DNA of 48,428 nt from a virus. Its lineage: Duplodnaviria; Caudoviricetes. The position numbers were made by a program, and so were the translations under genes. Location: positions 1 to 48,428 of IMG/VR virus record IMGVR_UViG_3300012665_000898. One strand, written 5' to 3'. The notes beneath the pieces were generated by a model. The model saw nothing but the letters and a program-made list of their open reading frames with translations, did not search any database and was not told the origin of the DNA. This document shows positions 17,357-40,762 of the stretch, piece after piece (position 1 is the first letter of the stretch; every line of letters starts with the position of its first letter).

Positions 17357-17396
17357 CTCAATAATAAATAGTAATTTTATACAATAATTCACGGCC

Positions 17397-19817: not shown

Positions 19818-19834
19818 CATTAATATAATTAGCT

Positions 19835-22702: not shown

Positions 22703-25700
22703 ATGGAACAAAACGAAAAACCAGTAAAAGTTAAAGGAGTTGCTACTGAAGGAGATACTACTCCTACTCCAGCAATAATGCCTAAAGTTACCAAGTCTAG
22801 TACGTTTGCAGATGTAACTCCTGGTAAAGAAAGATTAGCTAAATTAGGTACTGTTGCTACTGCCCCAACTGCCAATTACATTCCTGGATACGAAACAGGA
22901 ATTGATAAAAGAGCTGTTGATAGTTTATATGCTACTATAGATTTAGCTAAAGCTATTCCTGATCAATATGAAAGAGAAAAATACATAGAGTATAATAAAG
23001 ATAAACTTGTACAATTAATGACTCCTGATAAATATGGAGTTAGATTTACAAAAGATTTACAGGATTATGCTGTATTTAAAGAAAAAAAGTATGACCAACA
23101 AGTTAAAAAATTCTTAGATGACTTAGATGAAAATCAAGGATTTTTAGAAGCTTTAGGTTTAACAGCTGCAAAACTTGTAGGAAAAACTGCCGTAGCTGTG
23201 GGAGGGGTAATTCCTGTTGTTTACGGTATAGGAAGTGCTCTTTTTAATTGGGATGCTGATAAAATATTCAATAACACAGCATTCGATGCTTGGGAAGTAA
23301 TGGACCAAGGATTAGATAAACATCTAGCTGTTTATGGCGGATACGATTATACACAAGGAAATAAAGGATTTTTTGCTAGAATGGCAGATAATCCTATGAA
23401 ATCTATTAATGCTGATATTATTCCTGCAGCATCCTTTGTAGCAGGTGCTATTATTTCAGAATTAGCTGCAACTGCTTTAGCTCCTTTTACTGGAGGTACA
23501 ACTGTTGCCGCAAATACTGCTAGATTAGGAGCACAAGCTACTAATCTATTTTCTAAAGGAATGCGTACTATACGAGGTTTAGATACAGTAGGAGATTTTG
23601 CTAATATGCGTAATATAGCAGAGTTAACTAAAGTATATCGAGCAGGTATTGGTACAGCTACTTCTATGGTACGTTCTGCAGGTTACGAATCGGCATTAAT
23701 GGCTAGAAGTGCTTCTGATAAAACTTATAAGCAATTAGTAGCTAACCATAGAACTGTTAATGGTACAGAGCCTACAGAAAATCAAAAGGCTTTATATAGA
23801 GAAAGAGCTGATGATGCAGGAGAATATACTTGGGCTGCTAATATTCCTTTAGTAGGTTTTTCTAACATGATTCAATTTTCTAAAGTATTTGCTGGAGGAT
23901 TAAAAGTTAGTAAAGCATTATCTAGATTAAATCCATTAAAACTTACAGGAACAAGTGCTGTTGGAGGAAAAGTTATTGCTAACGCAGATAAATTTAAACC
24001 TTGGCAACGTACTGCTATCTTAGGAGGAACTGCTTTAAAATCAGGTATTACTGAAGGTTTTGAAGAATTTGCACAAGGAGCTATAGAAAATGGAACGGCT
24101 GATTACTTTACTTCTAAATATACTATTGGGGCAAAGAATACAGCAGCTAGTTACATTGATTCAATAGCAACTGCTGCTAGAAACTATGTAGGAACTACTG
24201 AAGGACAAGATTCCATTACTATTGGAGCACTAATGGGTATGTTAGGAATGCGTCTTCCCGTTAAAATGGACGAGCAAGGAAATGTTAAGTTCTCTTTAAG
24301 AGGACAGCATTTTGGAGGGGCTTACCAAGAAATTAAAGATGTAAAAGCTAAAATAAAAGAATCTAGAGAAACTGCTGAGTACATTAAAAATAATTCAATA
24401 GACCCTATTTTAAAGGCAAATTTTGATAACATGTTAAGCAACATTACTTCTCAAGCAGAGATGGATGATGCTATTTTACGTGGAGATAATTTTACTTTTA
24501 AGAATAAAGAATTTGAACAAACTTTTTCTCATGTTAGTACTAAAATTAAACAAGGTATTGGAGACACAGTAATTCAAGAAATTGAAGCACTAGAGCAATT
24601 ATCTTTAGAAGATTTTAATACACAGTTTGCACATCCTGGTGTAAAAGAATTTACAGAAGAAACTAAAAAAGAAGCTTTAAGTAAATTTAAAAACCAGACT
24701 AAAAATATTATTAAAGCTCATGAACAAGTTGAAACAGCTTTTAATGATACAAAACATTTAGTAGATTTTGCAAGAACAGATTTTAAAGCAATTGATAACC
24801 CAGAGTTTTTTACAGCTATAAAAGAACAAATGGCTTTCTTATTAGCTTCTAGTGATAATCTAGAAATGCGAGAGACAGAATTGCAAAATGAAGTACGTGA
24901 AAAAACTAATGGTAAAATTTCTCCAGATATTGTAAATAAATTAGTTGCTCAAGTTGCTAAGTTAACTCCAGAAGGTAAAGCAGAGTTTATTAATTCAGGA
25001 AATGAATTATACAAAGCTGCTTTAGAAAATTGGAAAGAAGAAGACATTAATAGCTACAATACATATGTAGACCAAGTAAAACCTTTATTAAAAGATTTGC
25101 TTCGAATTAAAGCTAAACGTGCAGAGTCTACATCTTTGTATAGAGCTTTATTTACAAAAAAAGGTGCTAACAATTTTGCTACATTCCATGACGAATTACA
25201 AGCTAAGTTTAATGAAGACGTACTAGCAAAATTACAAGAAGCTATAGCAGAAAAACTTAAAGGAGCTAAATCTTCAGAAAGAGTTGTAAAAACTGCTTCT
25301 GACGAAGCTTCTATTTCTGGAAGTACTCCTGCTGTAGATGCTAAACTTGCTGAAGAAAGTGATGCAGTAGATGCAGCATTACGTGCAGAATTAAATAGTA
25401 CTGACCCTGAAGCAGTAAAGGATGTAGCGGACGAATCAGAATTATTTGATAAAGTAGATTCTGCAGCTATGGTAGCAATGCTTCAAAAAAATCCTACATT
25501 GTTTGCAGAGATTTTAAATCGTCTAGCTAATGAAGGCAATGAGATATATGGATTAAGCAATATTGACCAATTAGATGAAATACTTGCTACTAATCCTGAT
25601 GCAGAAGCATTAATTGCAGGAACACTTGCAACTATTCTAAAAGAAAATGCCGCAGCTAAGGCTCTAAAACCTGTAGTGCAAACCTTTGCTAATCCTTTAG

Positions 25701-27265
25701 ACAAAGACCAACCTGCTCCAAAAAATTCAGATGCTGACAATTTTGAAGATATATTTGGGGCTAAATTAGATGAAGTAGTATCAATATTTACTAAAGGCAC
25801 TAATGTATCAGAAGTTAGTATTGTTCCTATTACTCATGACAAAAATATTGTCAATGGTAAAGTACAAAGAGATCCTGCTACAGGAAGATTTGTTAAAAAA
25901 GCTACCGACCAAAAAGTAGATACAGCGACTATTAACTCACCAGAGTTTTTAAGTAATGAAGAACTAGCTAATAATATCAAAGAGGCTACTCTTAAAATTG
26001 CTGACAACGACTACAATAAAACTAATCCTTCTGTAGAAGATATTGCTATTGACCTTTATCATGGTGATGTGTTCATTGGTAGACTACCTGCTTTTAAACC
26101 AGGCATGGATGCTAACTTATTAGAATTAAGAAAAGCAGTAGTTGCTCAAGAAACAAGCCGCACTGCAACTACAAATATAGAAGCTAAAAAAGCTGATATA
26201 GAAAAAAGAAGACAAGAAGAACTAAGACAAAATTTGTCTAAAACAGACTTTGCCATTTCTTTATTTCCTGCTTTTGCTCAAAGTAATATGAGCCAAGGGG
26301 GTGGTGCATATATGGAAGTTAATTTTGGTAAAAACAATATTTTCAGATTAGACACTTATCTAACCCCTTCTGCTATTAATGGACAATATCCTTCAATTAC
26401 AGATGGTAAAGCACAGTTATACGGAGAAATGTCTGATGGCACTAAAATCTCTTTACCTTGGAATCAGTTAAAAGATTTATTAAACAGTATTAAAGCAGTA
26501 GATACAAAAGGAGAGGTTGTTTATGAATTTGATATAAATAAAATCAATGCTAAATATGATTCAGAATTAGCTGCTTTAGAAACTACTAAACCTAAAACTA
26601 GTAATAAGCAAATAGAATCTTTAAAAGCAGAAATACAAGATTTAAAAGATTCTATAAAAGCAATTTTAGATAAAAATACTACAGAAGTAGTTCCTGCTGA
26701 ACCTGATACTAATTTTACAGGAGAAGTTAGTTACATAAAATCTCCTATTTCTGACGGTAGTTTTCTTGTAGATCATGAAAGCAAGACTGCTAAATTTGCG
26801 GAGTCTATGTTTAAACTAACATTAAACCCAAATAATCCAAATGAGGCTACTATTGAATTTATAGGAGACGAAAAAGTGACAATTCATGCTTTTAATTTTC
26901 CTGAAGAAAATATAGAGAAAGTTTCTGATTATTTAAACAGTATGATAAAAGGTAATCCTAATAAAATAATTACTGTTAGAAAAGGTATAGTAGAAAAAAA
27001 GGGAGATAAATGGGTGCTTAAACAAAAAGCTAAATTAGCTTTCGGAGATTCTAGTAAAACTGCTAAAGATTATGAAAATCTATTAACTACTACAAAACCT
27101 ACTAGTGAAATAAATGATAATCTAAGTAGACAACTTGTTAAAGGATTAGAAGAAAACATTAAAAGTAAAGAAACAGAGTTAACTGCTTTAGAAAATACCT
27201 CTATAGTAGAAAATAATTTTGACGCTATTATACAGCAATTAAATATTAAAACCGATTGTAAATAA
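22703..27265 (+). CDS. Large virion cargo/ejection protein with membrane-inserting Gly/Ala-rich segments
   Basis: 1520 aa. Hydrophobic G/A stretches, ES..MAR, EGFEE..QG, EG..S..IGALMG motifs; single Cys at the penultimate residue. Confidence 0.7.
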   Translation: MEQNEKPVKVKGVATEGDTTPTPAIMPKVTKSSTFADVTPGKERLAKLGTVATAPTANYIPGYETGIDKRAVDSLYATIDLAKAIPDQYEREKYIEYNKDKLVQLMTPDKYGVRFTKDLQDYAVFKEKKYDQQVKKFLDDLDENQGFLEALGLTAAKLVGKTAVAVGGVIPVVYGIGSALFNWDADKIFNNTAFDAWEVMDQGLDKHLAVYGGYDYTQGNKGFFARMADNPMKSINADIIPAASFVAGAIISELAATALAPFTGGTTVAANTARLGAQATNLFSKGMRTIRGLDTVGDFANMRNIAELTKVYRAGIGTATSMVRSAGYESALMARSASDKTYKQLVANHRTVNGTEPTENQKALYRERADDAGEYTWAANIPLVGFSNMIQFSKVFAGGLKVSKALSRLNPLKLTGTSAVGGKVIANADKFKPWQRTAILGGTALKSGITEGFEEFAQGAIENGTADYFTSKYTIGAKNTAASYIDSIATAARNYVGTTEGQDSITIGALMGMLGMRLPVKMDEQGNVKFSLRGQHFGGAYQEIKDVKAKIKESRETAEYIKNNSIDPILKANFDNMLSNITSQAEMDDAILRGDNFTFKNKEFEQTFSHVSTKIKQGIGDTVIQEIEALEQLSLEDFNTQFAHPGVKEFTEETKKEALSKFKNQTKNIIKAHEQVETAFNDTKHLVDFARTDFKAIDNPEFFTAIKEQMAFLLASSDNLEMRETELQNEVREKTNGKISPDIVNKLVAQVAKLTPEGKAEFINSGNELYKAALENWKEEDINSYNTYVDQVKPLLKDLLRIKAKRAESTSLYRALFTKKGANNFATFHDELQAKFNEDVLAKLQEAIAEKLKGAKSSERVVKTASDEASISGSTPAVDAKLAEESDAVDAALRAELNSTDPEAVKDVADESELFDKVDSAAMVAMLQKNPTLFAEILNRLANEGNEIYGLSNIDQLDEILATNPDAEALIAGTLATILKENAAAKALKPVVQTFANPLDKDQPAPKNSDADNFEDIFGAKLDEVVSIFTKGTNVSEVSIVPITHDKNIVNGKVQRDPATGRFVKKATDQKVDTATINSPEFLSNEELANNIKEATLKIADNDYNKTNPSVEDIAIDLYHGDVFIGRLPAFKPGMDANLLELRKAVVAQETSRTATTNIEAKKADIEKRRQEELRQNLSKTDFAISLFPAFAQSNMSQGGGAYMEVNFGKNNIFRLDTYLTPSAINGQYPSITDGKAQLYGEMSDGTKISLPWNQLKDLLNSIKAVDTKGEVVYEFDINKINAKYDSELAALETTKPKTSNKQIESLKAEIQDLKDSIKAILDKNTTEVVPAEPDTNFTGEVSYIKSPISDGSFLVDHESKTAKFAESMFKLTLNPNNPNEATIEFIGDEKVTIHAFNFPEENIEKVSDYLNSMIKGNPNKIITVRKGIVEKKGDKWVLKQKAKLAFGDSSKTAKDYENLLTTTKPTSEINDNLSRQLVKGLEENIKSKETELTALENTSIVENNFDAIIQQLNIKTDCK

Positions 27266-27273
27266 TAAATATA

Positions 27274-27747
27274 ATGGAAAGTTTATTAACACCCGCAGAA
27301 CAAACTGAATTAAACAAGTTCGGTTTACTGGAGCTTACAGCTTCACATACTTATTTGCACCTTGCAAATAGAATGAAAACTTTAGGATATTTTGGAGCAG
27401 AAAAACTTTTTACTGAAGAATCAGAAGGAGAAAGAGAGCACTACAATAAGATTGAGGCTTTTTGCAACAATTTAAATAGTGAGCTATCAGTAGAAGCATT
27501 GGACAAAGTGACTTCTACAGTTTCCAATATCAAAGAAGCCTTGGAAATGGCTGCAGAAATGGAAAAAGACTTACTACTTGAGTATGAAACTTCTGCAAAA
27601 AAAGCAGATTTATCATTAAAAGTTGTACTTTTGTTACAAGAGTTTACAACTCACCAAGTAGGGGCAGTAGGTGAATACTTTGATTTACTAGCTCGTTTAG
27701 CTCTTACTAATGACATGTTGTTATTCGACAAAGAATTAGGCAATTAA
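27274..27747 (+). CDS. Ferritin-like protein
   Basis: ELTASHTY, GYFGAEKLF, EESEGEREH, EME and HQ positions match the ferritin four-helix bundle and most ferroxidase ligands. Confidence 0.85.
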   Translation: MESLLTPAEQTELNKFGLLELTASHTYLHLANRMKTLGYFGAEKLFTEESEGEREHYNKIEAFCNNLNSELSVEALDKVTSTVSNIKEALEMAAEMEKDLLLEYETSAKKADLSLKVVLLLQEFTTHQVGAVGEYFDLLARLALTNDMLLFDKELGN

Positions 27748-27757
27748 ATAGTTTATT

Positions 27758-30700
27758 ATGGCTTGTAAGTATTGGTACGAAGGTAAATGGCACACAGAAG
27801 CTAAGTTTAAAGAAATTTTAGCAAATGGCCTTTTAGATAAATTAATAGCTGAGAACAAAGTAAGTTTATCAGCATTAGAATCTACAAGCGGAAAAACACA
27901 AGATTTTAACGCAGAAGAAGGTAAAAAGACTTCAATTGTCTTACGTATCCTGCATAAAATACAATCCAAGCTTAATAACGAAGTTGCTCCTGGAACAGGA
28001 GAATTTGTTAATAATAATCCTATTGATGTATTAGCTAAAGCAAACGAAGAGCGTAAAGCATTAAATCCTAAAGCAAAAGATATTCCACTACGTTTAGCAA
28101 TTAAAGTAAACGGTACTTTGCGTGTAGGAGAAGGAAAAGCTAATGCTGCATTAAAAGCAGAATTAGAAAAATCTGCTGTATTTAATACTATGGTAGACAA
28201 CATGAAAGAAGGTATTCCTTACATGTTAATTCCTTCTGCTTATGGGTTATATCCTGTTCAAGTTCGTTCAAGTAAAATTAAAGAAAGTAAAAAAGCACCT
28301 GTTGTTGCAAGTGAATTATTAAAACTTTCTAAAGCTTCAGGACCTGTTGCTATTAATGCAATTAGAAAAAATATTGAAAAACTGTTATACAGAACTACCG
28401 TAGAGTTTATTAACGGAAAATTTGTAGTTAATCAATATAATGCAGATACAGCTAAAATAGTAAAACATGAGTTTGCTAATGTAGAGGAAACGTCAAATTT
28501 TTTAGGAGAACTTCTTTACCGTGTAGATTACAATTCTATCAATAAAGGAAACTACAATACAGCAATGGCTCAAGACGGAGCTTTTACTACAGATTTATTT
28601 TCAGAAAATGGAAACTTTTTTAATTCTAGCTCTTTTGTAGTAGAAGCTTATTCTACTTCTAATGAAGCAAAAGCTACATTTGATTCCATATTTACATCTA
28701 CTTTACCTGCATCTAGTACAGAATCTGCAGAAGCGTCAATGGCTGCCAATGCAAGTCCTGTTAGTAATAATTCTACATCTAAAGCAGACGAGAATCCAAT
28801 GTTCTCAGAACCTGTTGATACTTTAACAGCTGCTTTAAAAGAAGATTTTTATGTAGACATTCCTGTTACAGGAAGTAACTACGGATATGTTAGGGTTTCT
28901 GCTGCAGTTGTTGATAATAAAATATCAGTAATAAAAGCACAAAGAATTAATAGAATAACTCAAAAAAATAAATCTGATGTAATTAAGGAGGGTCCTATTT
29001 TAGGTACAGGAGTAGAGTTAAATAATATTACTAAAGAATTTTTTGCTCATCCAGTAGTAGGTAAAAAGCAACTAGAAATTTTAAATAATCTTAATAAAAA
29101 TATTTCATTAGAAGGTATTGAGGCTCCTGAAATGTTAGGTGCAGATAACGCAACTCCTATAAAGAAAGCTTCTAGAAGAGCTGCTATGTTAGATGCTAAT
29201 GCAGAAACTCCTACTATAGAGTCTGCTAATGAATGGCTACAACAAGCTGCGTCTACAGAAACAGTTCCTGAAGATGTTACACCAGAGAATTTAACATCTG
29301 ACGATTTAGATTTCTTTTCAGATTTTGACAACGGTATTGAAGGAGAAACTCCTACAACTAAATTACGGGCTACTGAAAAAGAAGATGCTACAACTTGGGA
29401 CAAAGAGCAAGAGTTAACTTGGTTAATGGATAAAGTTACGGGTACTAGCAATTGGTTTAAAACAGGTACTTTTGACAGCTTAGAAGAGTTAGAGGCATAT
29501 TTGCCTAAAGAGACTTACGAAATGCTTTTAGAAGCAAGAAAAAGTGGTAAAACTGTACACGGTTTATTTACAAAAGCAGCAATGTATCTTTGGAATAATG
29601 CTGCAGCAGGTACTACTTACCACGAAGCTTTCCATATTGTATTTAACTTAGCACTTCCATTAAGTGCAAGATTAGAAATTTTGACAAATGCTGTTGAAGT
29701 ATATAGTGAAGATTTATCTTTAAATTCTACTTTCTTAGAAATAGAGGAGTACCTTGCAGATAAATTTATGGAGTACACTCAAGCTGAAGAAGCTGGAGAA
29801 AAAACTACGTCTAAAAAAATCAATAACTTTTTCAAAGGTTTATACAGAATGCTTAAAACATTCTTTAATTCTAAAAGAAAAGTTGATGTAGAAAAATTAT
29901 TTGAAGATATTAATTTAGGAGTTTACAAGCACTCAATTAAATTTAAGAACACAAATATACCTGGACAAGCAAAACTACGTGCAGAAGACAGAAGATTCGA
30001 TAATCCAATGGAGGAAAGAGCTTCTTTTCAGTATTTAAGCAACAGGTTAACTAATATTATTGAGGAGTATAAAACTAAGAATTCTGATTTTTTAGATAAA
30101 AACGATCAAGAAGTCTTGAATGCTATTGGTATTCAAAAAATGTACTCTGCATTAATTACTCAATTAGCAGGAGATATTAATGCTAATAGTAATCAAGAAA
30201 TAAAAGCTAAGTTGTTGAATCTTTTCAATGTAGCTACAAACAATAAAACAGCTATTCAAAAAGTTATCATTGATGAAAAGCCTGTTATTGTATTTAAAGA
30301 AATTCCTGATTTTATTCAAAGATTTAATAACAGCTTAAAAAATAGAGGTCTGCACATTGGACTAAAAACTGTAAAAGCTATTACTAATAACATTGAAGAA
30401 GAAAATCCATTTGACACTAAAGAGGAAAATACTCAAGAAGAAGCATGGATGATTGGTAATATTGAGATTAATCCTAAAGAAAGTATTAGTGTTAAATTAC
30501 GTTCTTTCTTTGCTACTATTCCTAAGTATCTTTCTAACCAAGTAAATGCTAGAAAAGCAGTTAATGAGTTTGGTGTACAAGGAACAGAAGATTCTAATAA
30601 AGTATTTGCTTACTTAATTTCTAAAATATCTAACAGCTATTCTGTTGAAGATATGATGGCTAAATTACGTAAGATTAAAACACAACGTCCTTACATCAAT

Positions 30701-33700
30701 CATATTATTGAAAAGGTAGAATTAGATAAAGGTTTACGTACAGATTTGTTTACAGCTATTGCAAGCAAAAACTTTGCAACATTTACAGCTGTTTATGAAA
30801 AAAATGGTGAGTATAGAATTATCAATTCTAATAGAAAAACATTAGAAAATATTATTCAAGAAGAAATTATTTCTAAATTCTTAACTCAAGGTAATCCTCT
30901 TTTTAATAAAGATAAAAACGGTCAAACCGATTTTACTAATATTAAACAAGAAGCTGTTACTTTATACTTAAAAGGTATAGAAGATTCTATTGGAGTTGCT
31001 AATAAAATTTCTAACAAACAAGATATTGATAACTTTCTTGATAATCTTAGTAAAAAACTAAAAGCAATTAAACTAAGTATCACTACTGAAGATTTAAATA
31101 CTATTTGGAATCCTGAATCAGGCAAAGCTTCTTGGGGTAATATTCAAGCACTATTAACGCAATTGCAAAAATTAGGTTTAGAGTTACAAAAAGGAAACAA
31201 TCCTTTCTTGTTTCTACAACCTGATGATGTTATTGCTAGCAGTAAAATAGGAGACAGAAACGTAGTAGAAGCTATTGCAAAAATAGTTCAACCTGCTTTA
31301 GAAAAAGAAACTGTATCTTCTTTTAGAAATATTGAAGGAAAAACTGTTTACAATTTAATTTTATCAGGCTTTTTAAATAAGCAAATTGCTAAATTTAAAG
31401 ACGATGCCGAGTTACAAAAATACTTAGAAGAAATTTCTGGAGATCCGTTGTTGAGAAATCTTCCGTTTATTCAAGATTTAAAAAATCCAGAAGGAACTCT
31501 ACAAGATAAATTAAGTGTCGTTATCTTAGACGGCCTTAGTCGTAGTGGTAAAAATCAAGCACAGGGATATTCTGACATGTCTCCTATTGAGTTAACTACT
31601 ACAGAATTAGCTATGTTCTACAACAACGGTAGTAGCAAAACAGCTAGATTTAAAATGCCTATTCCTTCTAACTCTCCTACATTACCTTTCTTAACAGCAG
31701 AAAGTTTTACTAATGATGAGGTAGTAGATAGATTAGTACAAACTGCTAAAGCAGAATATAGTAGAATTTTAAATTTAAAAAATTCACCAAAAGATTCATT
31801 ATTAAGATTAATTCCTAACTACAATAAATTAGGATTAAAGTTTCAGCATTTACCATTTTTAAATAAATTAGATTTAGAAAAAGGTTTTGATGAAGCACTT
31901 GTTAAATCTACTATTGAGGACTATTTAAAAAATACTTTCTTAGCAAAAGAATTAGCATATTACAAAAAAGAAGGTATTATTAAATCATATACTAATGACA
32001 AAATAGTATTTGCTGATAAAGTCATAGATGGTAGAATCAAAAACAAAGAAGAGTTTTTTGCTAATTATTTGTACAATAGTTTTTACATGAACATGCAAAT
32101 GACTTCTCTTTTTGGAGGAGACCCTGCATTCTATAAAAACACAACAGATTATCAAAAACGATACAAACAAATTTTAAGTCCTGGTACTTACCCAAACACA
32201 GAAGGTCTATCAGCTACTTATAATATGGTAGTTTTAGAAGATGAAGTTGCTCCTACAGATGAAAAGACTGTAGACAGCATCAAAAAAATCATCGAACAGT
32301 CTAACTTAACTGCAGAAGAAAAACTTACTTTATCTACTTTATGGGGTACAGTATTTTCTAATCCAGCATCTAAAGATTTTGAAGGACATAATTTAACAGA
32401 TGGTGCTACATTTATTAGTGTACACAGAAAGAAACAACAATTAGAAGGATTAAACAAATGGACTCCTGCTCATGAAGAAGCTTACCAACGTGAGCTTCGT
32501 GGTGAAAAACCTACAGAAAAGGATTTAGATATGTTTAAACCAGAAAAGCCTTTCTATTTTGGATTTAGAACTGTAGAAGGAGTTTCTGTACCAACACAAG
32601 TAAAAAACTCTGAGGTAACATTAACTCATACATTAGCTTTACAAAAAAATGCTGACGGTACTTTTATGTATCCAAAATTAGCAGCAATGTATCAAGATTT
32701 AATGAACCCTGAAAAAGGTATTGATGCTTTTGCTTTTGCTTCTGCTATTAAAGACGGAGCTGTGGGAGCTAATGTAAATGCTAAAGGAAATGTTGAGTTT
32801 GCTGACTATGTTCAACAATCAGACGGCTCCTATACGCTTACTAATGGCCAAAATATTATGGCAATGCAAGCTGCTGATTGGAGATTGCAACAAGAAACAC
32901 CTGCTCACTATATTGATGACCGATCAAACTTCTCTTCACAGTTGAGAAATTTGATTATTGGGGACATGGATATGCAAGGTGACTATAATATCAATGGTAC
33001 TAAATTAAAAGGTTCTGAAGTAGTTTCTTTGTATCAAGATTTAATTATCGAAGATTTACGTAGCTCTTTTGAAGATGTACGTGAAATGTTTGAGACTCCT
33101 ACAGGAGAAATTGATTTCATTAAATTAGCTACAGAATTAAGAGCAGAGGCTATTAAAAAAGACATGAATCAAGACTTTTTAGATGCTTTATCAATCTATA
33201 CAGATAATGTTACTGGAAAAAGTTCTACAGTATTGCCTTTGTATCACCCAATGATTTCTTATAAAATAGAATCATTAATGAACTCTTTCTTCACAAATAG
33301 AGTTACTAAGCAAAAAATTACTGGAGGTTCATTAGTCAATGCAAGTTCTTACGGTACTTCGAACAATTTGTCACTAGTAGTGAATGAAGAAACTGGGGCT
33401 ATTACAATGCAAGCTATGTTACCAGCTTGGTCTAAAAAATTATTCCCTAAAGATAGTAACGGAGAGGTTAATATTGAATTTATCAAAAAACATGCTCCTG
33501 AATTATTAAATATTATTGGATACCGTATTCCTAATGAGGATAAATACTCGATGTTTAATATTGAGGTAGTAGGATTTACTCCTAGTTCTATGGGACCTAT
33601 TGTTATTCTTCCTATTGAGATTACAACTATTGCAGGGCTTGACTTCGATATTGATAAAACTTATTTTATGTCTAGAGCATTTACTGTAGACAAAAAAGGA

Positions 33701-36634
33701 GTTCCTTCTTATACTAAGTATATTGAAGAATTAGATACAGAGGAAAAAGTTAAACAAGCAGCATTACAGATTTACTCAAATTTTGCAGATTTCAAACGAT
33801 TTGTAAAAAACAATGTACAGCCTAGTAATGTAGACAAGATGCTTGAGGGCTACCGTAATTTGATGGATAGACTAATTGAGAATCCTGAGAATATGGCTAT
33901 GGCAGATGCTACAGCTAAAGAAGTAATAACAAGTATTAAAGAGTTAAAATCTAACATAGGCTTTGCTATTAAAACTTATGGTAAAGATAGTTCAGTAGTC
34001 AGAGGAATGTATGAGACTATTGATGAATTATACAAAAGTTTAAATGAGGACTTTATCCGTTTCAACAATACTTTAGTAGAAACTACTGAGGCAGATTTAA
34101 AAGTTTTAGAATTTATTGAGAATAAATTAAAAACTAACTTTGACCCATTAAAGTTTAACTCTAGACTAGCACGAGATAATAAAAAAATAGAGCTTATTCA
34201 AGGAATCCTTGAAAATAAAAATACTGCAGCATCTATTTTAAATCCTGGTAGCTTCGATAACTTAAAAATGCAAGCAGCTAGAATCCGTCTATTACAAGCA
34301 GGAAAAATTGCAGAAAGTAAATTACCTAAAAACGAACTATTGGCCGCAGCAGATGCACTAGATAACGAAGATTTTGGTATTAATTTACCTTCTACTCAAT
34401 TAGAGTTGTTTAAGAGAAACATGATGGGGTCAAAATTGATTGGTATTTTTGCTAATCACAACGTACACCATGCAAAATCTCAATATACAAATTTACGATT
34501 AAAAGAATCTATTCAATTTAATGGTAAATTCTACGATAAATTAAATCAAGTTTACAATGAGTTAGGACAACGTATTTCAAAATTACTTGCATCCAACTTA
34601 GCAGGAGTTGTGGATAATGCTAAATATCCATTATCTTCTTTCCTAAACAGTAATACTTACACAGTAAACACAATTGCTTTATTAGAGCGTTTAGGTTTAG
34701 ATGAGGATACTGTTTATGCATTTGTAAACCAACCTGTTATTCTAGAGTTAACTCAGTTATATTTTAATGAAAAAGGATCGTTGTCAGAAGACAAACAATT
34801 CGATGCTATTAGAAATTCTTGGAGACAAAAATTAACTGCAAAATTAGAAGAAGCGGGTGTATCAGAAGATACTATTTTAGATGACAACTTAACTTTAGAG
34901 GAACTACAAAAAGCTCTTCCAGGAGCACCAAAAGGTTCTGGGGCAGAAGTAGATTACTATAAATTACAGTATAAAGTACTAAACTTGTTCCAAAAATACT
35001 ATGAAATAGGTCAAGAATTAAGTGAAGGTACTATAGCAGCTAAAACAGACACAGTAGGTGTAGGACCAACTAGTTCCGCTAACTACGTATTCTTAAACAA
35101 ACAAGAAAGAGTTTTAGAGAGAATTGCTAAAAACAACAATAAAATTATAGGACTTGATGAAGTATTTAAAGGAGGTACGAACCAAAAAATGATTCCTGCC
35201 TTTACTAAATATGCATTATACGGTCCAATAGCAGTACTAAATAAAATATTCCCATCAATTGGAAATATTACACCAAGTGGTACTATTACATATTCTAGTT
35301 TAGGAAACTTGAAAAACTGGTTCTCTTCACAAAAAGGAGAAAATAGTTTAACGGAAAAAGAAGCTAACTTAATTAACATCCAATACATGGATTTCTTAAT
35401 TAGTGCTTTCCCGTTATTTAGTAGAAAAAATAGTGAGAAAATTTTAAATACTGTACCTGATAAATTGACAGAATTTAAAAATAATATGTCTCCAGAAGCT
35501 CCTTATAAAATGTTTATTGACAGTTTATTTGTAGTTAAACCAGATAACAATTCTCCAATAACAAGAATTCAGTATTACAATACAGGTAAAACTAATGATG
35601 ATGTAGCAGGTATTAAAGCTTCTTGGCAACGTATGTTAGAAGATACTAATCTTGATGTGAGAGAATTTGCATTGCAATTAGTTCAATATACTTACTTCTC
35701 TTCAGGATACGGTTTTGGACCATTTACTTTCTCTAATTTAATCCCTGTAAAATTCTGGAGTAATGAATATCAAATTGAGAATAATATTGTAGACAATAAA
35801 AATCGTCCTTTCAATATGTTCCTAGAAGATGCATTAAAAGCAGATTTCTCAGAAGGAAGTGTTTACAGAAATAGATTTATCAAACAGTTTGTACAAAACA
35901 ATGCTGAAAAAGAGAGTCTAGTTAAATCTGTAAAAATAGGTAAGAGTCTTAAAAAAGCTGACGAAGGTACTACAGGTGCAGAACAGAATAATGTCACTAC
36001 TATTTTAGCACAGAAAAACGGTATTATCCAGACTTCTGCAGGAAATTTAGTAATTAATGTTTCTAAAAATAGAAACTTGTTTCCTTTTGGTGAAAAATTA
36101 TCACCAATTAAATACATCAAAGTATATCAAAAATCTGGAAAAGTTCAGTTATATGAGCACCGTCCTACAAAATATGATTACAAAAATCCTGATGAATTTG
36201 ACGGTCAGAAATTTATAGATACTGTTACTTATTTCCCTATTGATACTTTAGGTAGCTCTAATGTTGCATTGGAATATGACTTTACTAATGACATTACAAA
36301 GTCGTCTATTAGCAAAACAAAAGCTCCTGTTAAGCAAACTACCGCTGCTAAAATTGTAGCTACGGATGCACAATCATCAGTAGAAGATGCTGCAATTAGA
36401 ATGGAGCAAGAAAATGCTGCTAACTTCTTGGCTGCTTCTGCTACTGCCGAACCTGTTATAGAAGGAGCAACTCCAAAAAGACGTAGAGCAGGTACGATTG
36501 ATACTACAGCAGAAGATGTTCCAGTAACTTACAAAGCGTATCAAGAAGCTAAGGGTACATTATCTGAAGAAGATTTCTTATCTTTAAGCCCTCGTGAGCA
36601 AGAACGTAGAATAAAAGAACTATTAGGTTGTTAA
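27758..36634 (+). CDS. Virion-packaged two-barrel RNA polymerase (crAss-like, phi14:2 gp66 type) with zincin-like domain
   Basis: Catalytic GLDFDIDK (DFDID at 33641-33655) preceded by GYRIPNEDKYS. Also FGGDPAFYK...KR, TDGATFI, LQQE, KITGGSLVN, IGIFAN, VDNAK; HEAFH at 29621-29635 with EEYLADKF. Confidence 0.93.
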   Translation: MACKYWYEGKWHTEAKFKEILANGLLDKLIAENKVSLSALESTSGKTQDFNAEEGKKTSIVLRILHKIQSKLNNEVAPGTGEFVNNNPIDVLAKANEERKALNPKAKDIPLRLAIKVNGTLRVGEGKANAALKAELEKSAVFNTMVDNMKEGIPYMLIPSAYGLYPVQVRSSKIKESKKAPVVASELLKLSKASGPVAINAIRKNIEKLLYRTTVEFINGKFVVNQYNADTAKIVKHEFANVEETSNFLGELLYRVDYNSINKGNYNTAMAQDGAFTTDLFSENGNFFNSSSFVVEAYSTSNEAKATFDSIFTSTLPASSTESAEASMAANASPVSNNSTSKADENPMFSEPVDTLTAALKEDFYVDIPVTGSNYGYVRVSAAVVDNKISVIKAQRINRITQKNKSDVIKEGPILGTGVELNNITKEFFAHPVVGKKQLEILNNLNKNISLEGIEAPEMLGADNATPIKKASRRAAMLDANAETPTIESANEWLQQAASTETVPEDVTPENLTSDDLDFFSDFDNGIEGETPTTKLRATEKEDATTWDKEQELTWLMDKVTGTSNWFKTGTFDSLEELEAYLPKETYEMLLEARKSGKTVHGLFTKAAMYLWNNAAAGTTYHEAFHIVFNLALPLSARLEILTNAVEVYSEDLSLNSTFLEIEEYLADKFMEYTQAEEAGEKTTSKKINNFFKGLYRMLKTFFNSKRKVDVEKLFEDINLGVYKHSIKFKNTNIPGQAKLRAEDRRFDNPMEERASFQYLSNRLTNIIEEYKTKNSDFLDKNDQEVLNAIGIQKMYSALITQLAGDINANSNQEIKAKLLNLFNVATNNKTAIQKVIIDEKPVIVFKEIPDFIQRFNNSLKNRGLHIGLKTVKAITNNIEEENPFDTKEENTQEEAWMIGNIEINPKESISVKLRSFFATIPKYLSNQVNARKAVNEFGVQGTEDSNKVFAYLISKISNSYSVEDMMAKLRKIKTQRPYINHIIEKVELDKGLRTDLFTAIASKNFATFTAVYEKNGEYRIINSNRKTLENIIQEEIISKFLTQGNPLFNKDKNGQTDFTNIKQEAVTLYLKGIEDSIGVANKISNKQDIDNFLDNLSKKLKAIKLSITTEDLNTIWNPESGKASWGNIQALLTQLQKLGLELQKGNNPFLFLQPDDVIASSKIGDRNVVEAIAKIVQPALEKETVSSFRNIEGKTVYNLILSGFLNKQIAKFKDDAELQKYLEEISGDPLLRNLPFIQDLKNPEGTLQDKLSVVILDGLSRSGKNQAQGYSDMSPIELTTTELAMFYNNGSSKTARFKMPIPSNSPTLPFLTAESFTNDEVVDRLVQTAKAEYSRILNLKNSPKDSLLRLIPNYNKLGLKFQHLPFLNKLDLEKGFDEALVKSTIEDYLKNTFLAKELAYYKKEGIIKSYTNDKIVFADKVIDGRIKNKEEFFANYLYNSFYMNMQMTSLFGGDPAFYKNTTDYQKRYKQILSPGTYPNTEGLSATYNMVVLEDEVAPTDEKTVDSIKKIIEQSNLTAEEKLTLSTLWGTVFSNPASKDFEGHNLTDGATFISVHRKKQQLEGLNKWTPAHEEAYQRELRGEKPTEKDLDMFKPEKPFYFGFRTVEGVSVPTQVKNSEVTLTHTLALQKNADGTFMYPKLAAMYQDLMNPEKGIDAFAFASAIKDGAVGANVNAKGNVEFADYVQQSDGSYTLTNGQNIMAMQAADWRLQQETPAHYIDDRSNFSSQLRNLIIGDMDMQGDYNINGTKLKGSEVVSLYQDLIIEDLRSSFEDVREMFETPTGEIDFIKLATELRAEAIKKDMNQDFLDALSIYTDNVTGKSSTVLPLYHPMISYKIESLMNSFFTNRVTKQKITGGSLVNASSYGTSNNLSLVVNEETGAITMQAMLPAWSKKLFPKDSNGEVNIEFIKKHAPELLNIIGYRIPNEDKYSMFNIEVVGFTPSSMGPIVILPIEITTIAGLDFDIDKTYFMSRAFTVDKKGVPSYTKYIEELDTEEKVKQAALQIYSNFADFKRFVKNNVQPSNVDKMLEGYRNLMDRLIENPENMAMADATAKEVITSIKELKSNIGFAIKTYGKDSSVVRGMYETIDELYKSLNEDFIRFNNTLVETTEADLKVLEFIENKLKTNFDPLKFNSRLARDNKKIELIQGILENKNTAASILNPGSFDNLKMQAARIRLLQAGKIAESKLPKNELLAAADALDNEDFGINLPSTQLELFKRNMMGSKLIGIFANHNVHHAKSQYTNLRLKESIQFNGKFYDKLNQVYNELGQRISKLLASNLAGVVDNAKYPLSSFLNSNTYTVNTIALLERLGLDEDTVYAFVNQPVILELTQLYFNEKGSLSEDKQFDAIRNSWRQKLTAKLEEAGVSEDTILDDNLTLEELQKALPGAPKGSGAEVDYYKLQYKVLNLFQKYYEIGQELSEGTIAAKTDTVGVGPTSSANYVFLNKQERVLERIAKNNNKIIGLDEVFKGGTNQKMIPAFTKYALYGPIAVLNKIFPSIGNITPSGTITYSSLGNLKNWFSSQKGENSLTEKEANLINIQYMDFLISAFPLFSRKNSEKILNTVPDKLTEFKNNMSPEAPYKMFIDSLFVVKPDNNSPITRIQYYNTGKTNDDVAGIKASWQRMLEDTNLDVREFALQLVQYTYFSSGYGFGPFTFSNLIPVKFWSNEYQIENNIVDNKNRPFNMFLEDALKADFSEGSVYRNRFIKQFVQNNAEKESLVKSVKIGKSLKKADEGTTGAEQNNVTTILAQKNGIIQTSAGNLVINVSKNRNLFPFGEKLSPIKYIKVYQKSGKVQLYEHRPTKYDYKNPDEFDGQKFIDTVTYFPIDTLGSSNVALEYDFTNDITKSSISKTKAPVKQTTAAKIVATDAQSSVEDAAIRMEQENAANFLAASATAEPVIEGATPKRRRAGTIDTTAEDVPVTYKAYQEAKGTLSEEDFLSLSPREQERRIKELLGC

Positions 36635-36646
36635 AATAATCAAACT

Positions 36647-39600
36647 ATGAAATGTATTAATATATCCCATCCTGAGTTTAAAGAACTTTTAAAGGAATCA
36701 GGAATACACCCTGAAATACTCCAAACTAAGGTTAGTTTATGGATGGACGATAATAGTACTACCAAATTTCCTAGTTTAGAAGATTTAAACTTAGCCCCTA
36801 AACAAAATGTTTTATATTCTATAGAAGACCCTATTAAAGCTAAAAAAAGAATTTTAAGAGCAGCTAGAGCAGTAAATGAATTAGTTGACCCACAAGCTTA
36901 CATGACTTTATATAAAGAAGTAGCCGCTTACAACGGTAAAGCGGGCCAAGTAGTTTTTTCTATACATAAAGCTGTATCAGGTAATTATTATATTGTACAA
37001 AAAGATTACAAATATCAATTAGCTAAAAAAGGAAATCAAGAGCCTATTGAAGCATTGGACAATATATTAAAAGATTGGGCAAAAGCTCATGGCATTTCTG
37101 TAGAGACTATTGAAAATTTACGAGAGCGTTTCAAAGATCGTTACGAAGACGGGATTTTAGGAGTTGCAGATTTAGCTCAAGCATTAATAGGCTTAGCAGA
37201 AGATAGAAACGCTGATACTTTAGCAGAAGAAGTAGGGCACTTTGCTGTGGAGATTTTATTAAACACCCCTGCAATGCAAAGAGCTTTGGACCTTGTTGTT
37301 AATACAGACGAATATGCTCAGGTAAAAGAGGACTATAAAAATATTTACACTACCGAAGACCAATTCAAAAAAGAGGCTCTAGGTAAAATATTAGCCCAAC
37401 ACATCGTCTCCAATTATACTGCTGGACAAAATCAATCAGCATTTAAAACATACTTAAATAGTATTAAGTCTGCATTTAAGCGATTTGTAGAAGCTATTTT
37501 TGGAAAGAATACCAATAGTCGAGAAGAGCTAGATAACATCATTTTACCACTTGCTAGAGACATTCTAGCAAATAAATTTATTGGAGAAGTTCCAAGTGTA
37601 GAAGAAGTATTATATTCTATAGCTCCTGAAGAGGAGGAAGAAGCTGCTCCTTCAGTAGATATTGTAGTGCAAAAGAAAAAAGAATTCCTAGAAAACGCTA
37701 TTAATATACTAGTAGAAAGAACTAAAATATTAAAACAAAATGCTAAAAATCAAGGAGTTATCAATGTTTTAGATTCTCAAATATCAGCTTTGAAAAAAGA
37801 AGTTGCTAAAGGAGAATTAGATTTAGCTCTCCATAGTCTAGTAAAATTAGCACAGTCAGAGTTAAATGTTATTGAAAACGCTTTGAATAAAGCAATTGCC
37901 AAAGGTTCTAGCAGCACAAACATGCTGGTAAACTCTAGTGACTTTGTTGATATGTATGACAACATCTTTAAATCCTTTATAAAAACTATGTATTCTTTAG
38001 GTATTCCTATTGATACTGTAGACAATATTCAGGAAATTATGGACGACATGCACTTAGTAATGCAACGAGTTCGAGGTAAGTTAGGAGCACTACAAGAAGT
38101 AGAGAGTATCAAAATTCTTGAAGCAGGTAACTTAGATGCTTACGGAGAAAAAATTGACCCAGAATTTGATGCTACAGAAGTGGCTAAAAAAACTGCTAAA
38201 GATACAACTGCTTGGAGACTTCAAGTAGGTAATTACAAATTTGCAGATTCTGCAATTATTCGTGTAGCACATAAAATTATTTTTGATTCTATCAATAGAG
38301 TAAAAAGATTTGCTATTAGAAAATCCAATGAGCTTTTATCTGCTCAAGATAAAATGCTAGCTTCTGGAGTAACTCAAGAAGATTTAGTAGAAAAAGATGC
38401 TAATGGTAAAAATACTCAATACTTAATCAGAGAGTATTCATGGGGCAAATATTTTGCAGCTATGGATGCCCACAAACAAGCCCTTGCTGAGCGGTTAGGT
38501 TTTAAAGATTACAATGAAATTCATGTAGAATATTTAAGCAAAGAAGAGCTTGCTACATATAATGCAGGATGGAAAGATTTCTTTGCAGCTAACACTAAAA
38601 AAGTTAGTAGAGTAGTTGAAATTCGTCCAGGTGAATACCAAAAAGCTACAAGTAGTGTACCAAATGATTCTTATATCAATCCTGACTATGATAGAATCAT
38701 GGCTAACCCTGCAGCAAAAGCTTATTATGATTTACTAATTGAAACTAAAAGAGAAGCATTAACAAAACTTCCTGTAAAATATCGTACAGAAAGATTGCTT
38801 TACAGCATGCCCGCTATTTTAAAAAGTCATTTAGATGAATTAACTAATAAAGAAAAGTCAGTTTTAAATAGAGTAGGAAGTATTGCAGAAAGAGCATTAC
38901 TTGTTGATGAAGACGATACACAATTTGGACAAGTAAATGTGCTAAACAATAAAATGGTTCCTATTTACTTTACAGGAATTCTTAAAAATCCTAAAGATTT
39001 ATCGACAGATTTAGCAAGAACTTTTACAGTTTTTGCAGAGATGGCAGAGAATTTTCAAGAGATGAATAAGATAGCAGGAGATTTAGGAGTGGTTCAAAAA
39101 ACTCTTGCTGAAAGAAGTTACTTAAAAGGTAAAGTAGAGAAAAAAGGTATTGAGTCTAATGAGTACAAAGTTCTTGAGACTTTATTAGATACTTCAGTTT
39201 TTGGTATAGAAAAAACGCAATTAGCTTCTACTATACCTGATAATGCATTTACAGAAAAATTAGGTATTGCAGGGAAAAAATTCTCTTGGACAAAAGCTTC
39301 TCAAACTTTTGCAACTTTTATACGTGATAACAACTTAGCTTTGAATATTACTACTGCATTGTCAGGTTGGTTAAAAGGTTCAGGAGATTCTATCATTGAG
39401 GACCAAGTAGGCTTATACACTACTAATGAAAGTAAAAATTGGTCAAGAGCAGAATTTATGAGAAATATTTCTGAAGTAGCTTCTCAAATAGGAAAAGCTA
39501 AACAGACTAATAAAATGCATCTTATTTTACAAGAAGCAGGTATTGTTGATTTAGAAAAGATTCTTAAAAATTCTGGTAAAGGAAGAATTGCTCGTACAAT

Positions 39601-40762
39601 GTTGACTAAAGATTCCTTGTATATTCCATTTGCAACAGGGGATTACGGATTAAAAGGACGTGCAACATTAGCCATTTACGATAACATGCGTTTGTACAAT
39701 GGAAAATTCCTTACTAAAGCTAAGTTTTTAGAAGTAACTGCTAAAGAAAAAGGAGTTCCTAATGACAATGCTCATAAAAAAGCTATGCAAGATAGTTGGA
39801 AAGACTTACGTGATAGTAGTTTATACAATGCTTACGAGGTAGTAGACGGAAATCTGCAGATTAAAAAAGAGTTTGAGGCCTATGTAACAGATGGAGTATT
39901 GAATACTGCTAGAGGTAAAGTAGACCACTTGACTCACTATATTGACGGTACAATGTCTCAAACAGATAAAGGAGCACTTGCAAGAAAAATTGCAGGAGAC
40001 TATTTATTGATGCACAGAGGCTGGTTTATTGGATTAATAGATACAAGATTTAAAAAAGAAAACAAAAACTTTATTACAGAAGAAGAGGAGATCGGAACCT
40101 ACCGTGCAACTGCAGACTTCTTATTTAATAGTTTTGGAAAAACTTTGCTTAAAGAAAAAGGTAATATACTTGCAGCCTTTGCAACTTGGGACGATTTATC
40201 TCCTGCAAAAAAACGAGGTGTATTAAAAACAGCTTTAGACGGGCTATTCTTAACAATAGTATCATTCTTAGCAGCTCTTGCTAATGTAGCAGCAGATGAC
40301 GATGATGAAGAAGATTGGACAACCCAATACTTGGCGTATCAGATGAATCGACTACTATTGGAACAGGGTGCAGCATGGTCTCCTGCAGAGGTTGCCCAAA
40401 TGATTGACGAGCCTGTAGTAGGAGCAAGAATGATTAAAGATATACTTGATATAACAGAAGCGTTTAATACGTCAGAAGTATATGAAAAAGGTATGTACGC
40501 TGGAGATTCTCATGCAGAAAAATGGTGGTTTAGAAAATTACCTATAAAAAATATTTACGAAGCTCAGTATCCTGAATTAAAAAATAACTTCATAAAACAA
40601 TTAGTAGATTCTAAAATGTACGAATTAATGTCTGAAGAGCAAATTCAAGGTATAGGATTAGTAGGGAAATTAAGAAATCTTGCTTCAGACGAAGCTAGCG
40701 ACCCAGTGCCAGAAATTATAGAGTACATTCAGGAAGACGACTCTGTAGATTATGATTTATAA
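36647..40762 (+). CDS. Large virion cargo protein (RNAP-associated), degenerate zincin-like motif and C-terminal hydrophobic helix
   Basis: 1371 aa. N-terminal MKCINISHPEFKEL, TLAEEVGHFAV...KEALGK, HRGW...RF...EEEIGTYR, TM-like GLFLTIVSFLAALANVA. Confidence 0.7.
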   Translation: MKCINISHPEFKELLKESGIHPEILQTKVSLWMDDNSTTKFPSLEDLNLAPKQNVLYSIEDPIKAKKRILRAARAVNELVDPQAYMTLYKEVAAYNGKAGQVVFSIHKAVSGNYYIVQKDYKYQLAKKGNQEPIEALDNILKDWAKAHGISVETIENLRERFKDRYEDGILGVADLAQALIGLAEDRNADTLAEEVGHFAVEILLNTPAMQRALDLVVNTDEYAQVKEDYKNIYTTEDQFKKEALGKILAQHIVSNYTAGQNQSAFKTYLNSIKSAFKRFVEAIFGKNTNSREELDNIILPLARDILANKFIGEVPSVEEVLYSIAPEEEEEAAPSVDIVVQKKKEFLENAINILVERTKILKQNAKNQGVINVLDSQISALKKEVAKGELDLALHSLVKLAQSELNVIENALNKAIAKGSSSTNMLVNSSDFVDMYDNIFKSFIKTMYSLGIPIDTVDNIQEIMDDMHLVMQRVRGKLGALQEVESIKILEAGNLDAYGEKIDPEFDATEVAKKTAKDTTAWRLQVGNYKFADSAIIRVAHKIIFDSINRVKRFAIRKSNELLSAQDKMLASGVTQEDLVEKDANGKNTQYLIREYSWGKYFAAMDAHKQALAERLGFKDYNEIHVEYLSKEELATYNAGWKDFFAANTKKVSRVVEIRPGEYQKATSSVPNDSYINPDYDRIMANPAAKAYYDLLIETKREALTKLPVKYRTERLLYSMPAILKSHLDELTNKEKSVLNRVGSIAERALLVDEDDTQFGQVNVLNNKMVPIYFTGILKNPKDLSTDLARTFTVFAEMAENFQEMNKIAGDLGVVQKTLAERSYLKGKVEKKGIESNEYKVLETLLDTSVFGIEKTQLASTIPDNAFTEKLGIAGKKFSWTKASQTFATFIRDNNLALNITTALSGWLKGSGDSIIEDQVGLYTTNESKNWSRAEFMRNISEVASQIGKAKQTNKMHLILQEAGIVDLEKILKNSGKGRIARTMLTKDSLYIPFATGDYGLKGRATLAIYDNMRLYNGKFLTKAKFLEVTAKEKGVPNDNAHKKAMQDSWKDLRDSSLYNAYEVVDGNLQIKKEFEAYVTDGVLNTARGKVDHLTHYIDGTMSQTDKGALARKIAGDYLLMHRGWFIGLIDTRFKKENKNFITEEEEIGTYRATADFLFNSFGKTLLKEKGNILAAFATWDDLSPAKKRGVLKTALDGLFLTIVSFLAALANVAADDDDEEDWTTQYLAYQMNRLLLEQGAAWSPAEVAQMIDEPVVGARMIKDILDITEAFNTSEVYEKGMYAGDSHAEKWWFRKLPIKNIYEAQYPELKNNFIKQLVDSKMYELMSEEQIQGIGLVGKLRNLASDEASDPVPEIIEYIQEDDSVDYDL

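Follow-up and report, generated by a model that had tools for sequence, protein, structure and literature searches.

The subject of this analysis is a set of three giant, putative virion cargo proteins, here called A, B and D, encoded in succession at positions 22,703 to 40,762 of a 48,428-nucleotide stretch of viral DNA (Duplodnaviria; Caudoviricetes; positions 1 to 48,428 of IMG/VR record IMGVR_UViG_3300012665_000898), which as a whole we refer to as the window. Pfam matches to ring, muzzle and CARG1 families, tblastn matches to virion RNA polymerases (RNAPs) and a phmmer match to PDB 6VR4 assign the window to the Crassvirales; the ring, muzzle and C1 cargo genes that lie upstream match PF25702, PF24228, PF25731 and PF25725. 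The three proteins, with lengths in amino acids (aa), are:

22703..27265, plus strand: A, gp47/gp67-like cargo protein of 1520 aa, head of the proposed chain; its single cysteine (Cys) is Cys1519 (codon 27257-27259)
27758..36634, plus strand: B, virion RNAP of 2958 aa, homologue of gp50/gp66; Cys3 (27764-27766) and Cys2958 (36629-36631)
36647..40762, plus strand: D, cargo protein of 1371 aa in the gp49/gp65 position, tail of the proposed chain; single Cys3 (36653-36655)

B is a two-barrel virion RNAP with the DFDxD motif and gp66/gp50 homology: it matches crAss001 gp50 by tblastn (E 8e-49), is likewise matched by phi14:2 gp66, finds 6VR4 as its only PDB relative (phmmer, E 4e-24) and carries HEAFH at residue 622 and DFDID at 1962. 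A profile of A-fused RNAP heads matches A of the window at 196 bits, crAss001 gp47 at 98 and phi14:2 gp67 at 86. D matches phrog_37651, a virion structural protein (E 3e-22), and this match together with its gene position makes D a candidate gp49/gp65 counterpart. No Pfam family, and hence no intein, was found in A, B or D. The corresponding proteins of two cultured phages, gp47-gp50-gp49 of crAss001 and gp67-gp66-gp65 of phi14:2, are packaged in the virion and ejected (PMC10172136; bioRxiv 2020.03.07.982082; here and below, citations refer to the accessible portions of the papers), are encoded by the same genes in the same synteny, and obey the terminal-Cys rule described below.

A scripted count found four Cys in the 9,696 aa of the six putative cargo proteins of the window, each at a facing end of A, B or D, whereas the 2100-aa (11054-17356), 806-aa (17397-19817) and 941-aa (19835-22660) proteins have none. 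This reproduces the exact counts and positions reported by an earlier sequence-only reading of this DNA, with no internal Cys, and its remark that neighbouring tail and cytoplasmic proteins use Cys normally is in line with 42 Cys in the 5,325 aa (0.79%) of the 19 other window genes. At 0.79%, about 76 Cys would be expected in the 9,696 aa, against the 4 observed; the probability that all four lie three or fewer residues from a terminus, calculated post hoc, is about 2e-10. Recoding the window under translation table 15 gives the same Cys pattern. We also considered read-through from B into D, which are in frame over one TAA, and rejected it because the frame is not maintained in crAss001 or phi14:2.

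The pattern extends well beyond the window. In crAss001, gp47 has Cys at 2339 of 2341 residues, gp50 at 5 and at 2404 of 2412 plus one internal Cys, and gp49 at 5; in phi14:2, gp67 has Cys at 1797 of 1797, gp66 at 3 and at 2179 of 2180, and gp65 at 3. All 68 database homologues of A, 7 of which match only weakly or through a mobile domain, have a Cys in the last ten residues, none in the first ten and none internally in 103,693 residues. Homologues of D show the mirror image, with an N-terminal Cys in 82/94, a C-terminal Cys in 0/94 and 21 internal Cys in 144,559 residues; the inspected part of the twelve without an N-terminal Cys consists of late start calls or fragments. Among 120 homologues of B, 91 have the N-terminal Cys, 114 the C-terminal one and 88 both. 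In a set of 125 distinct complete RNAP open reading frames (ORFs), from which a motif filter excluded the Intestiviridae records, 82 have both, 38 the C-terminal Cys only, 3 the N-terminal only and 2 neither; the raw counts retain the terminal Cys of P0072 and P0317, which resemble sequencing-adapter tails. The check proposed in the sequence-only reading, namely whether across Crassvirales a C-terminal Cys co-occurs with an N-terminal one in the next large gene, came out in its favour: the next large ORF downstream of an RNAP with a C-terminal Cys has an N-terminal Cys in 103/105 cases; of the two others, one is a frameshifted gene and one has its Cys at position 10. When gp47 is encoded on the other strand, its Cys is still kept at 35/36 distinct ends, and the control gene that immediately precedes the head of the chain carries a C-terminal Cys in just 1/56; the pattern is therefore not an effect of gene adjacency. 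Even the Steigviridae-type RNAPs, despite their internal Cys, have the N-terminal Cys in 42/43 and the C-terminal Cys in 43/43. The terminal-Cys rule is real and order-wide.

In the clade of the window, the A+B fusion P0049 has only the last Cys left and the B+D fusion P0046 only C3, and in both the alignments pass over the two terminal modules at the fused junction. The apparent A+B+D fusions P0081 and L085 have no Cys at all. The Suoliviridae and the Flavobacterium Fpv phages, in which A and B are fused, have one Cys pair, and in all five Intestiviridae examined A has its C-terminal Cys and the B+D fusion an N-terminal Cys only. For a check that does not depend on Cys, 45 non-redundant RNAPs lacking the N-terminal Cys were taken and a profile was built from their first 1000 residues; it matched 26/28 free A proteins (28-640 bits) and 0/67 heads of RNAPs with the N-terminal Cys (best 0.8 bits). 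The converse profiles of free A and free D, too insensitive to call most fusions, detected A in 8 RNAPs, all without the N-terminal Cys, and D in 4, all without the C-terminal Cys. Fusion removes exactly the Cys pair at the fused junction. On a 114-tip tree of the RNAP core (FastTree, midpoint-rooted, three tips being broken ORFs), parsimony gives 9 changes for the N-terminal state and 8 for the C-terminal state, which we read as 'several times' and nothing finer. That RNAP-locus proteins are fused in some crassviruses has been noted previously (bioRxiv 2020.03.07.982082).

The converse event is the appearance of a new break. Additional links, each with two Cys of which one lies at either end, are present inside junctions in L033 (288 aa), L052 (456 aa) and L151 (314 aa, adjoining the contig end); L166 has two such links, of 92 and 345 aa, and L253 also has two, of 1325 and 318 aa. 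The L052 link and the gene that follows it are collinear with the single unbroken D of many relatives, and a GIY-YIG gene sits in the break. In L166 the 92-aa ORF resembles a class I socket (defined below) joined to another plug and has two relatives with 50-61% identity; GIY-YIG genes follow both this ORF and the next link, the latter of which bears GNAT-like and ART-PolyVal domains. A blind scan of 5,430 ORFs returned 16 with the one-Cys-per-end pattern, of which five are inserted links and the other eleven are short, lie elsewhere and have no module score. New breaks gain a Cys pair, with one Cys at each link end. A search for loci of the link P0305 yielded relatives of its inner domain and nothing else. 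What look like extra splits in cr116_1 and cr108_1 were set aside, being located at the catalytic motif and read as introns, as was a split in IAS within an N-rich stretch.

The terminal Cys are embedded in short modules, which we term plugs (C-terminal) and sockets (N-terminal) and which in the window are as follows, the first three with approximate bounds:

27185..27262, plus strand: C-terminal plug of A, ending in Cys; 68/68 homologues have a Cys in their last ten residues, and the plug is absent in P0049
27758..27847, plus strand: class II socket at the N terminus of B; all 40 aligned RNAPs of the clade have Cys3, lost in P0049
36560..36631, plus strand: class I plug at the C terminus of B; alignment A2 shows its Cys to be invariant, lost in P0046
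36647..36772, plus strand: N-terminal socket of D, class I; alignment A3, predicted helical hairpin with helices at residues 9-18 and 22-36

Sockets are about 40 residues long with conserved hydrophobic positions, and an AlphaFold2 (AF2) model of the class I socket is a helical hairpin (mean pLDDT 79) without a match among PDB folds. The class I plug of B, whose sole invariant residue is the Cys (alignment A2), is probably helical to judge from its periodic pattern. A Pfam search of the modules returned no family, and alignment A3 is too variable for a pattern search. The class I socket profile nonetheless gathers 754 clusters at E<=1e-3; among the best 150 of these, a Cys lies within the first 8 residues in 149, and in 35 there is another near the end, some of these two-ended clusters being truncation artefacts. 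The socket profiles have no internal copies in the cargo database (0/224 and 0/93 domain hits).

Do particular plugs go with particular sockets? Class I plug and socket profile scores correlate with rho 0.59 over 60 junctions outside the training clade. This was a second attempt, using longer profile-based class scores trained on the clade of the window; the A end of L033 belonged to the class II training set and its score was disregarded. In genomes with two junctions the stronger class I plug stands opposite the stronger class I socket in 11/14. The class I pair is located at B/D in the window and at A/B in the Steigviridae. When loci were found by the socket alone, a class I plug lay upstream in 16/16 (12-49 bits, 14 distinct ends), some of these loci being members of the clade or already met. 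Pairing specificity thus finds support, from sequence profiles, for one class and not as a full code, a limit we set because the kin compared are not independent.

We interpret these observations as follows. A, B and D almost certainly pair head to tail, the end of A docking on the start of B and the end of B on the start of D; the paired ends are likely to be locked by disulfides; and the composite picture, in which Cys-tipped modules dock the three pieces into one disulfide-locked chain of 5,849 residues, is in our assessment probable. Its support lies in the Cys positions, their conservation, the loss of modules on fusion, the gain of Cys in links and the co-travel of class I plugs and sockets. 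The modules would bind non-covalently while the virion is assembled in the reducing cytoplasm, and docking would bring the pieces into the virion together, in a fixed order and at equal copy number. Oxidation after lysis would form the disulfide and lock the pair. On infection the unfolded chain might then be drawn as one thread through the tail and the periplasm, and having no internal Cys would avoid wrong bonds during this passage. Reduction of the bond may follow once the chain is in the cytoplasm, though release would be optional since fused forms are common in nature; given natural A+B, B+D and full fusions, the release in the reducing cytoplasm that the sequence-only reading proposed cannot be an essential step. 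On the best reading, the clasp would be interchangeable with a peptide bond and would serve crassviruses as the single 3,500-residue polypeptide serves N4, and the short docking modules would make a post-translational polyprotein.

A precedent for such a link exists outside the crassviruses. In the cyanopodophage A4 (Anabaena phage A-4L, Saffermanviridae) the C-terminal helix of gp27 inserts into gp26, and a Cys1715-Cys5 disulfide between them is seen by cryo-electron microscopy (cryo-EM; PMC12002296). We found that these two residues are the only Cys in gp27 (1717 aa) and gp26 (1114 aa), so that here too consecutive giant ejection proteins have their sole Cys at facing ends, and that both are kept in 4/4 relatives, Pf-WMP3, Pf-WMP4, TR020 and CHP58. 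The terminal-Cys rule for gp27 and gp26 is accordingly observed in 5/5 Saffermanviridae genomes (L241-L245), TR020 having two extra internal Cys. The crassvirus clasp would work like the A4 link, outside that family and extended to a multi-link chain interchangeable with fusion; A4 differs in having one junction and no RNA polymerase. The accessible text on A4 says nothing of a purge of Cys, of interchange with fusions, of more than one class or of crassviruses (PMC12002296). With this precedent, the conservation, the loss at fused junctions and the gain in links support the sequence-only reading in part, and strongly so for head-to-tail pairing through terminal peptides. Its belief that the phenomenon was undescribed stands in so far as we found no description of the terminal Cys of crassvirus cargo in a literature search that covered subscription papers thinly; the principle itself has one earlier description, the A4 gp27-gp26 disulfide. 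Neither the accessible text of PMC10172136 (with one supplement) nor that of bioRxiv 2020.03.07.982082 mentions Cys or disulfides of the RNAP-locus proteins.

Several observations weigh against this interpretation. The disulfide clasp is proposed from sequence patterns, and in the accessible cryo-EM account of crAss001 disulfides are found only in tail and vertex proteins, gp47, gp50 and gp49 not being resolved (PMC10172136). Cys avoidance is leaky in the Steigviridae-type RNAPs, with 1.5 internal Cys per 1000 aa. In L064, the sole clear exception found, D has a socket and the RNAP lacks the C-terminal Cys. Our first pairing test compared the similarity of 24-residue plug ends with that of socket ends in an all-pairs design, with 32 x 59 cross-position junction pairs, and returned rho -0.06; for class II, plug scores are uncorrelated with socket scores outside the clade (rho -0.08); and related genomes in the pairing tests are not independent. 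Lastly, no homology could be detected between A4 gp26 or gp27 and the crassvirus proteins A, B and D or the modules: against 282 crassvirus proteins the best phmmer E was 0.07, and the module profiles were negative.

Among other explanations, the first is that the two Cys of a head-to-tail docked pair bridge a metal (Zn or Fe), alone or with the two thiols of a second chain. This would fit the fusion and insertion pattern equally well; during packaging, a metal clasp would function despite the reducing cytoplasm; junctions often hold ferritin-like genes; and in many class I sockets the Cys is followed by a His, with a His within 12 residues at 38/91 junctions. Yet at least two further His or Cys within 12 residues occur at only 8/91 junctions (a four-chain site would still be compatible with this), there is no CxxC or set of extra conserved ligands beside each Cys as in a zinc hook, the socket His is not invariant, and the sole solved analogue is a disulfide. 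We consider a metal bridge improbable, and the shared-metal option of the sequence-only reading is accordingly disfavoured.

An equally low probability attaches to the second explanation, in which non-covalent docking of the modules is the working link, and the Cys remain mostly reduced or have some other function at the interface, in redox or modification. Phage assembly takes place in the reducing cytoplasm, many of the hosts are gut anaerobes, and sockets of about 40 residues with conserved hydrophobics would suffice for binding. On this explanation one would have to account for the class I plug having no invariant residue but the Cys, and for Cys being kept on both sides across unrelated module classes in proteins otherwise purged of Cys; moreover, crAss001 virions do carry disulfides elsewhere (PMC10172136).

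Binding of the terminal Cys to a third partner (portal, capsid or tail), or self-closure of B combined with A-D pairing, is compatible with the window taken alone and with the disulfides borne by tail and vertex proteins. The fusions make it very unlikely: A+B fusions retain the Cys at the B end and the D start, B+D fusions those at the A end and the B start, and full fusions none. From this retention pattern we infer A-B and B-D pairs rather than B-B or A-D pairs or external anchors.

Less likely still is an irreversible, Cys-driven ligation, by trans-splicing or through a thioester, that yields a true polyprotein. The interchangeability of the pieces with gene fusion would suit it, as would a band above 300 kDa excised from a reducing gel of crAss001 virions, whose identity does not appear in the accessible text (PMC6235969). 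Against it, A, B and D contain no intein domain, and there is no free N-terminal Cys or fixed C-terminal residue of the kind a split intein or thioester mechanism would have: after the C-side Cys come 0-15 residues, and on the N side the Cys lies at position 3-7. These positions favour side-chain pairing and disfavour ligation or lipidation. Reducing-gel bands of about 150 and about 270 kDa also fit the listed monomer masses, their identities again not appearing in the accessible text (PMC6235969, PMC10172136). As for the weakest alternative, terminal codons are indeed constrained by neighbouring signals, but chance or a side effect of start, stop or ribosome-binding sequences is already refuted by the counts (68/68, 35/36 and 149/150 among the best 150 of 754, against 1/56 for the control gene) and by the persistence of the rule over strands and intervening genes, leaving it a negligible probability.

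Returning to the disulfide-locked chain, a more ambitious version of it would be a plug-and-socket code, in which mutually exclusive Cys-tipped classes join any number of pieces into an ordered, disulfide-locked thread that is exchanged freely with fusion. It would include links that are accessory enzymes (one with GNAT-like and ADP-ribosyltransferase domains), adaptors of 92-99 aa that convert one class to another, and endonuclease genes that come with an upstream plug and a downstream socket and so can split essential cargo with neither intron nor intein. We regard the case for this code as evenly poised.

Comparable solutions are known from other systems. The Schitoviridae (N4, DEV) also eject a giant, Cys-purged RNAP, with N-domain, polymerase and C-domain in one thread; the gp71 homologues have 0.00075% Cys, and the purge has been attributed to passage through the periplasm (PMC11445570). 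Theirs is a single Cys-free polypeptide with a T7-like enzyme and no terminal Cys, whereas the crassvirus cargo consists of three pieces, probably clasped, from three genes with four Cys, and its RNAP is two-barrel. The relation of the N4-type domains to the three crassvirus proteins has been called open (PMC13434306). The ejection order in crAss001 has been ascribed to 'interactions with one another' (PMC10172136), and phi14:2 gp66 was purified and crystallised with reductant, a few terminal residues being untraced (bioRxiv 2020.03.07.982082). A has two weakly hydrophobic stretches, and our guess is that it may correspond to the membrane-anchored N-domain of N4. In polyketide synthases and non-ribosomal peptide synthetases, docking domains, which are short terminal modules, order separate polypeptides non-covalently. 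The NrdA gene of phage Aeh1 is reportedly split by the mobE endonuclease gene, with the complex, held together non-covalently, still working. Neither has a Cys clasp.

Other features of the window and the relatives are:

6834..11054, plus strand: crassvirus muzzle gene, context; PF25731 (E 8e-135), ordinary internal Cys
11054..22660, plus strand: three Cys-free genes for C1-like and C2-position cargo (scripted Cys count), outside the Cys chain
26165..26698, plus strand: mobile accessory domain in A, residues 1155-1332; 60-87% identity to other cargo stretches
27274..27747, plus strand: ferritin-like gene within the A/B junction, not a chain link; PF00210 (E 4e-11), one internal Cys

The ferritin gene between A and B, correctly recognized in the sequence-only reading, is one of a recurrent kind. 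Gaps of more than 200 nucleotides occur at 20/148 distinct same-strand junctions and mostly hold ferritin-like or GIY-YIG genes; ferritin or DUF5856 genes fill 14 of the 20, at A/B in some phages and at B/D in others, the loci including window 27274-27747, L033, L050, L059, L063, L171 and L065. Such junctions may be a safe harbour for these genes, or the genes may have a redox role in the virion. GIY-YIG genes with a plug upstream and a socket downstream lie at conserved break motifs of D in L166 (7356-9949) and L052 (18028-25063). The chain of L253 (5001-9938) extends beyond the D-position gene through its 1325-aa and 318-aa proteins, each with one Cys per end. In L064 (4433-20310) a Cys-free 333-aa ORF comes after the RNAP without the C-terminal Cys, the socket Cys of D being present. 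In L062, a relative whose cargo genes are open only with TGA read through, A has the C-terminal Cys and a B+D fusion the N-terminal one. A locus search from a single sequence gave no result.

The upstream cargo proteins present a different picture. The 806-aa protein matches PF25725 CARG1 and a glucosaminidase, the 2100-aa protein has no match in Pfam or PHROG, and the cargo role of the 2100-aa and 941-aa proteins is suggested by gene position. The claim that the upstream proteins are Cys-free holds in the window but not as a rule: crAss001 gp45 has C390 and C398, and gp69 in the same position of phi14:2 has C369 and C378. Such an internal Cys pair, 8-9 residues apart, is seen in the C1-position cargo of crAss001, phi14:2 and cr111_1 (L001 37308-39836, L002 9184-10446, L004 3441-5669), and the C1 protein of the window lacks it. 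Aromatic-x-x-GG repeats number 6 in the 2100-aa and 4 in the 806-aa protein and 0 in A, B and D; they are possibly processing sites, in which case upstream proteins may undergo cleavage, in contrast to the joining proposed for the RNAP cargo. The mobile domain of A, which had no match in a Pfam search, resembles stretches of other cargo proteins, including residues 430-596 of the RNAP P0030, and short recurring motifs flank it; such motifs are apparently where cargo genes exchange cassettes.

Crassviruses are the most abundant order of gut phages, and how 0.7 MDa of RNAP-locus protein is packed and ejected in order has been left open in the structural papers (PMC10172136, PMC13434306). For two cultured phages the Cys rule singles out four residues, and their pairing is testable by gel and mass spectrometry; reduced and non-reduced crAss001 samples for mass spectrometry exist (PMC10172136). 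It can be used for annotating cargo and correcting start calls and, if the modular code is true, these phages would hold a natural collection of protein connectors that are short, specific and redox-lockable. Together with A4, it suggests that short-tailed phages with no relationship to each other arrived at one and the same clasp. For the order itself, the rule explains why the RNAP-locus genes are split, fused or inverted across the families.

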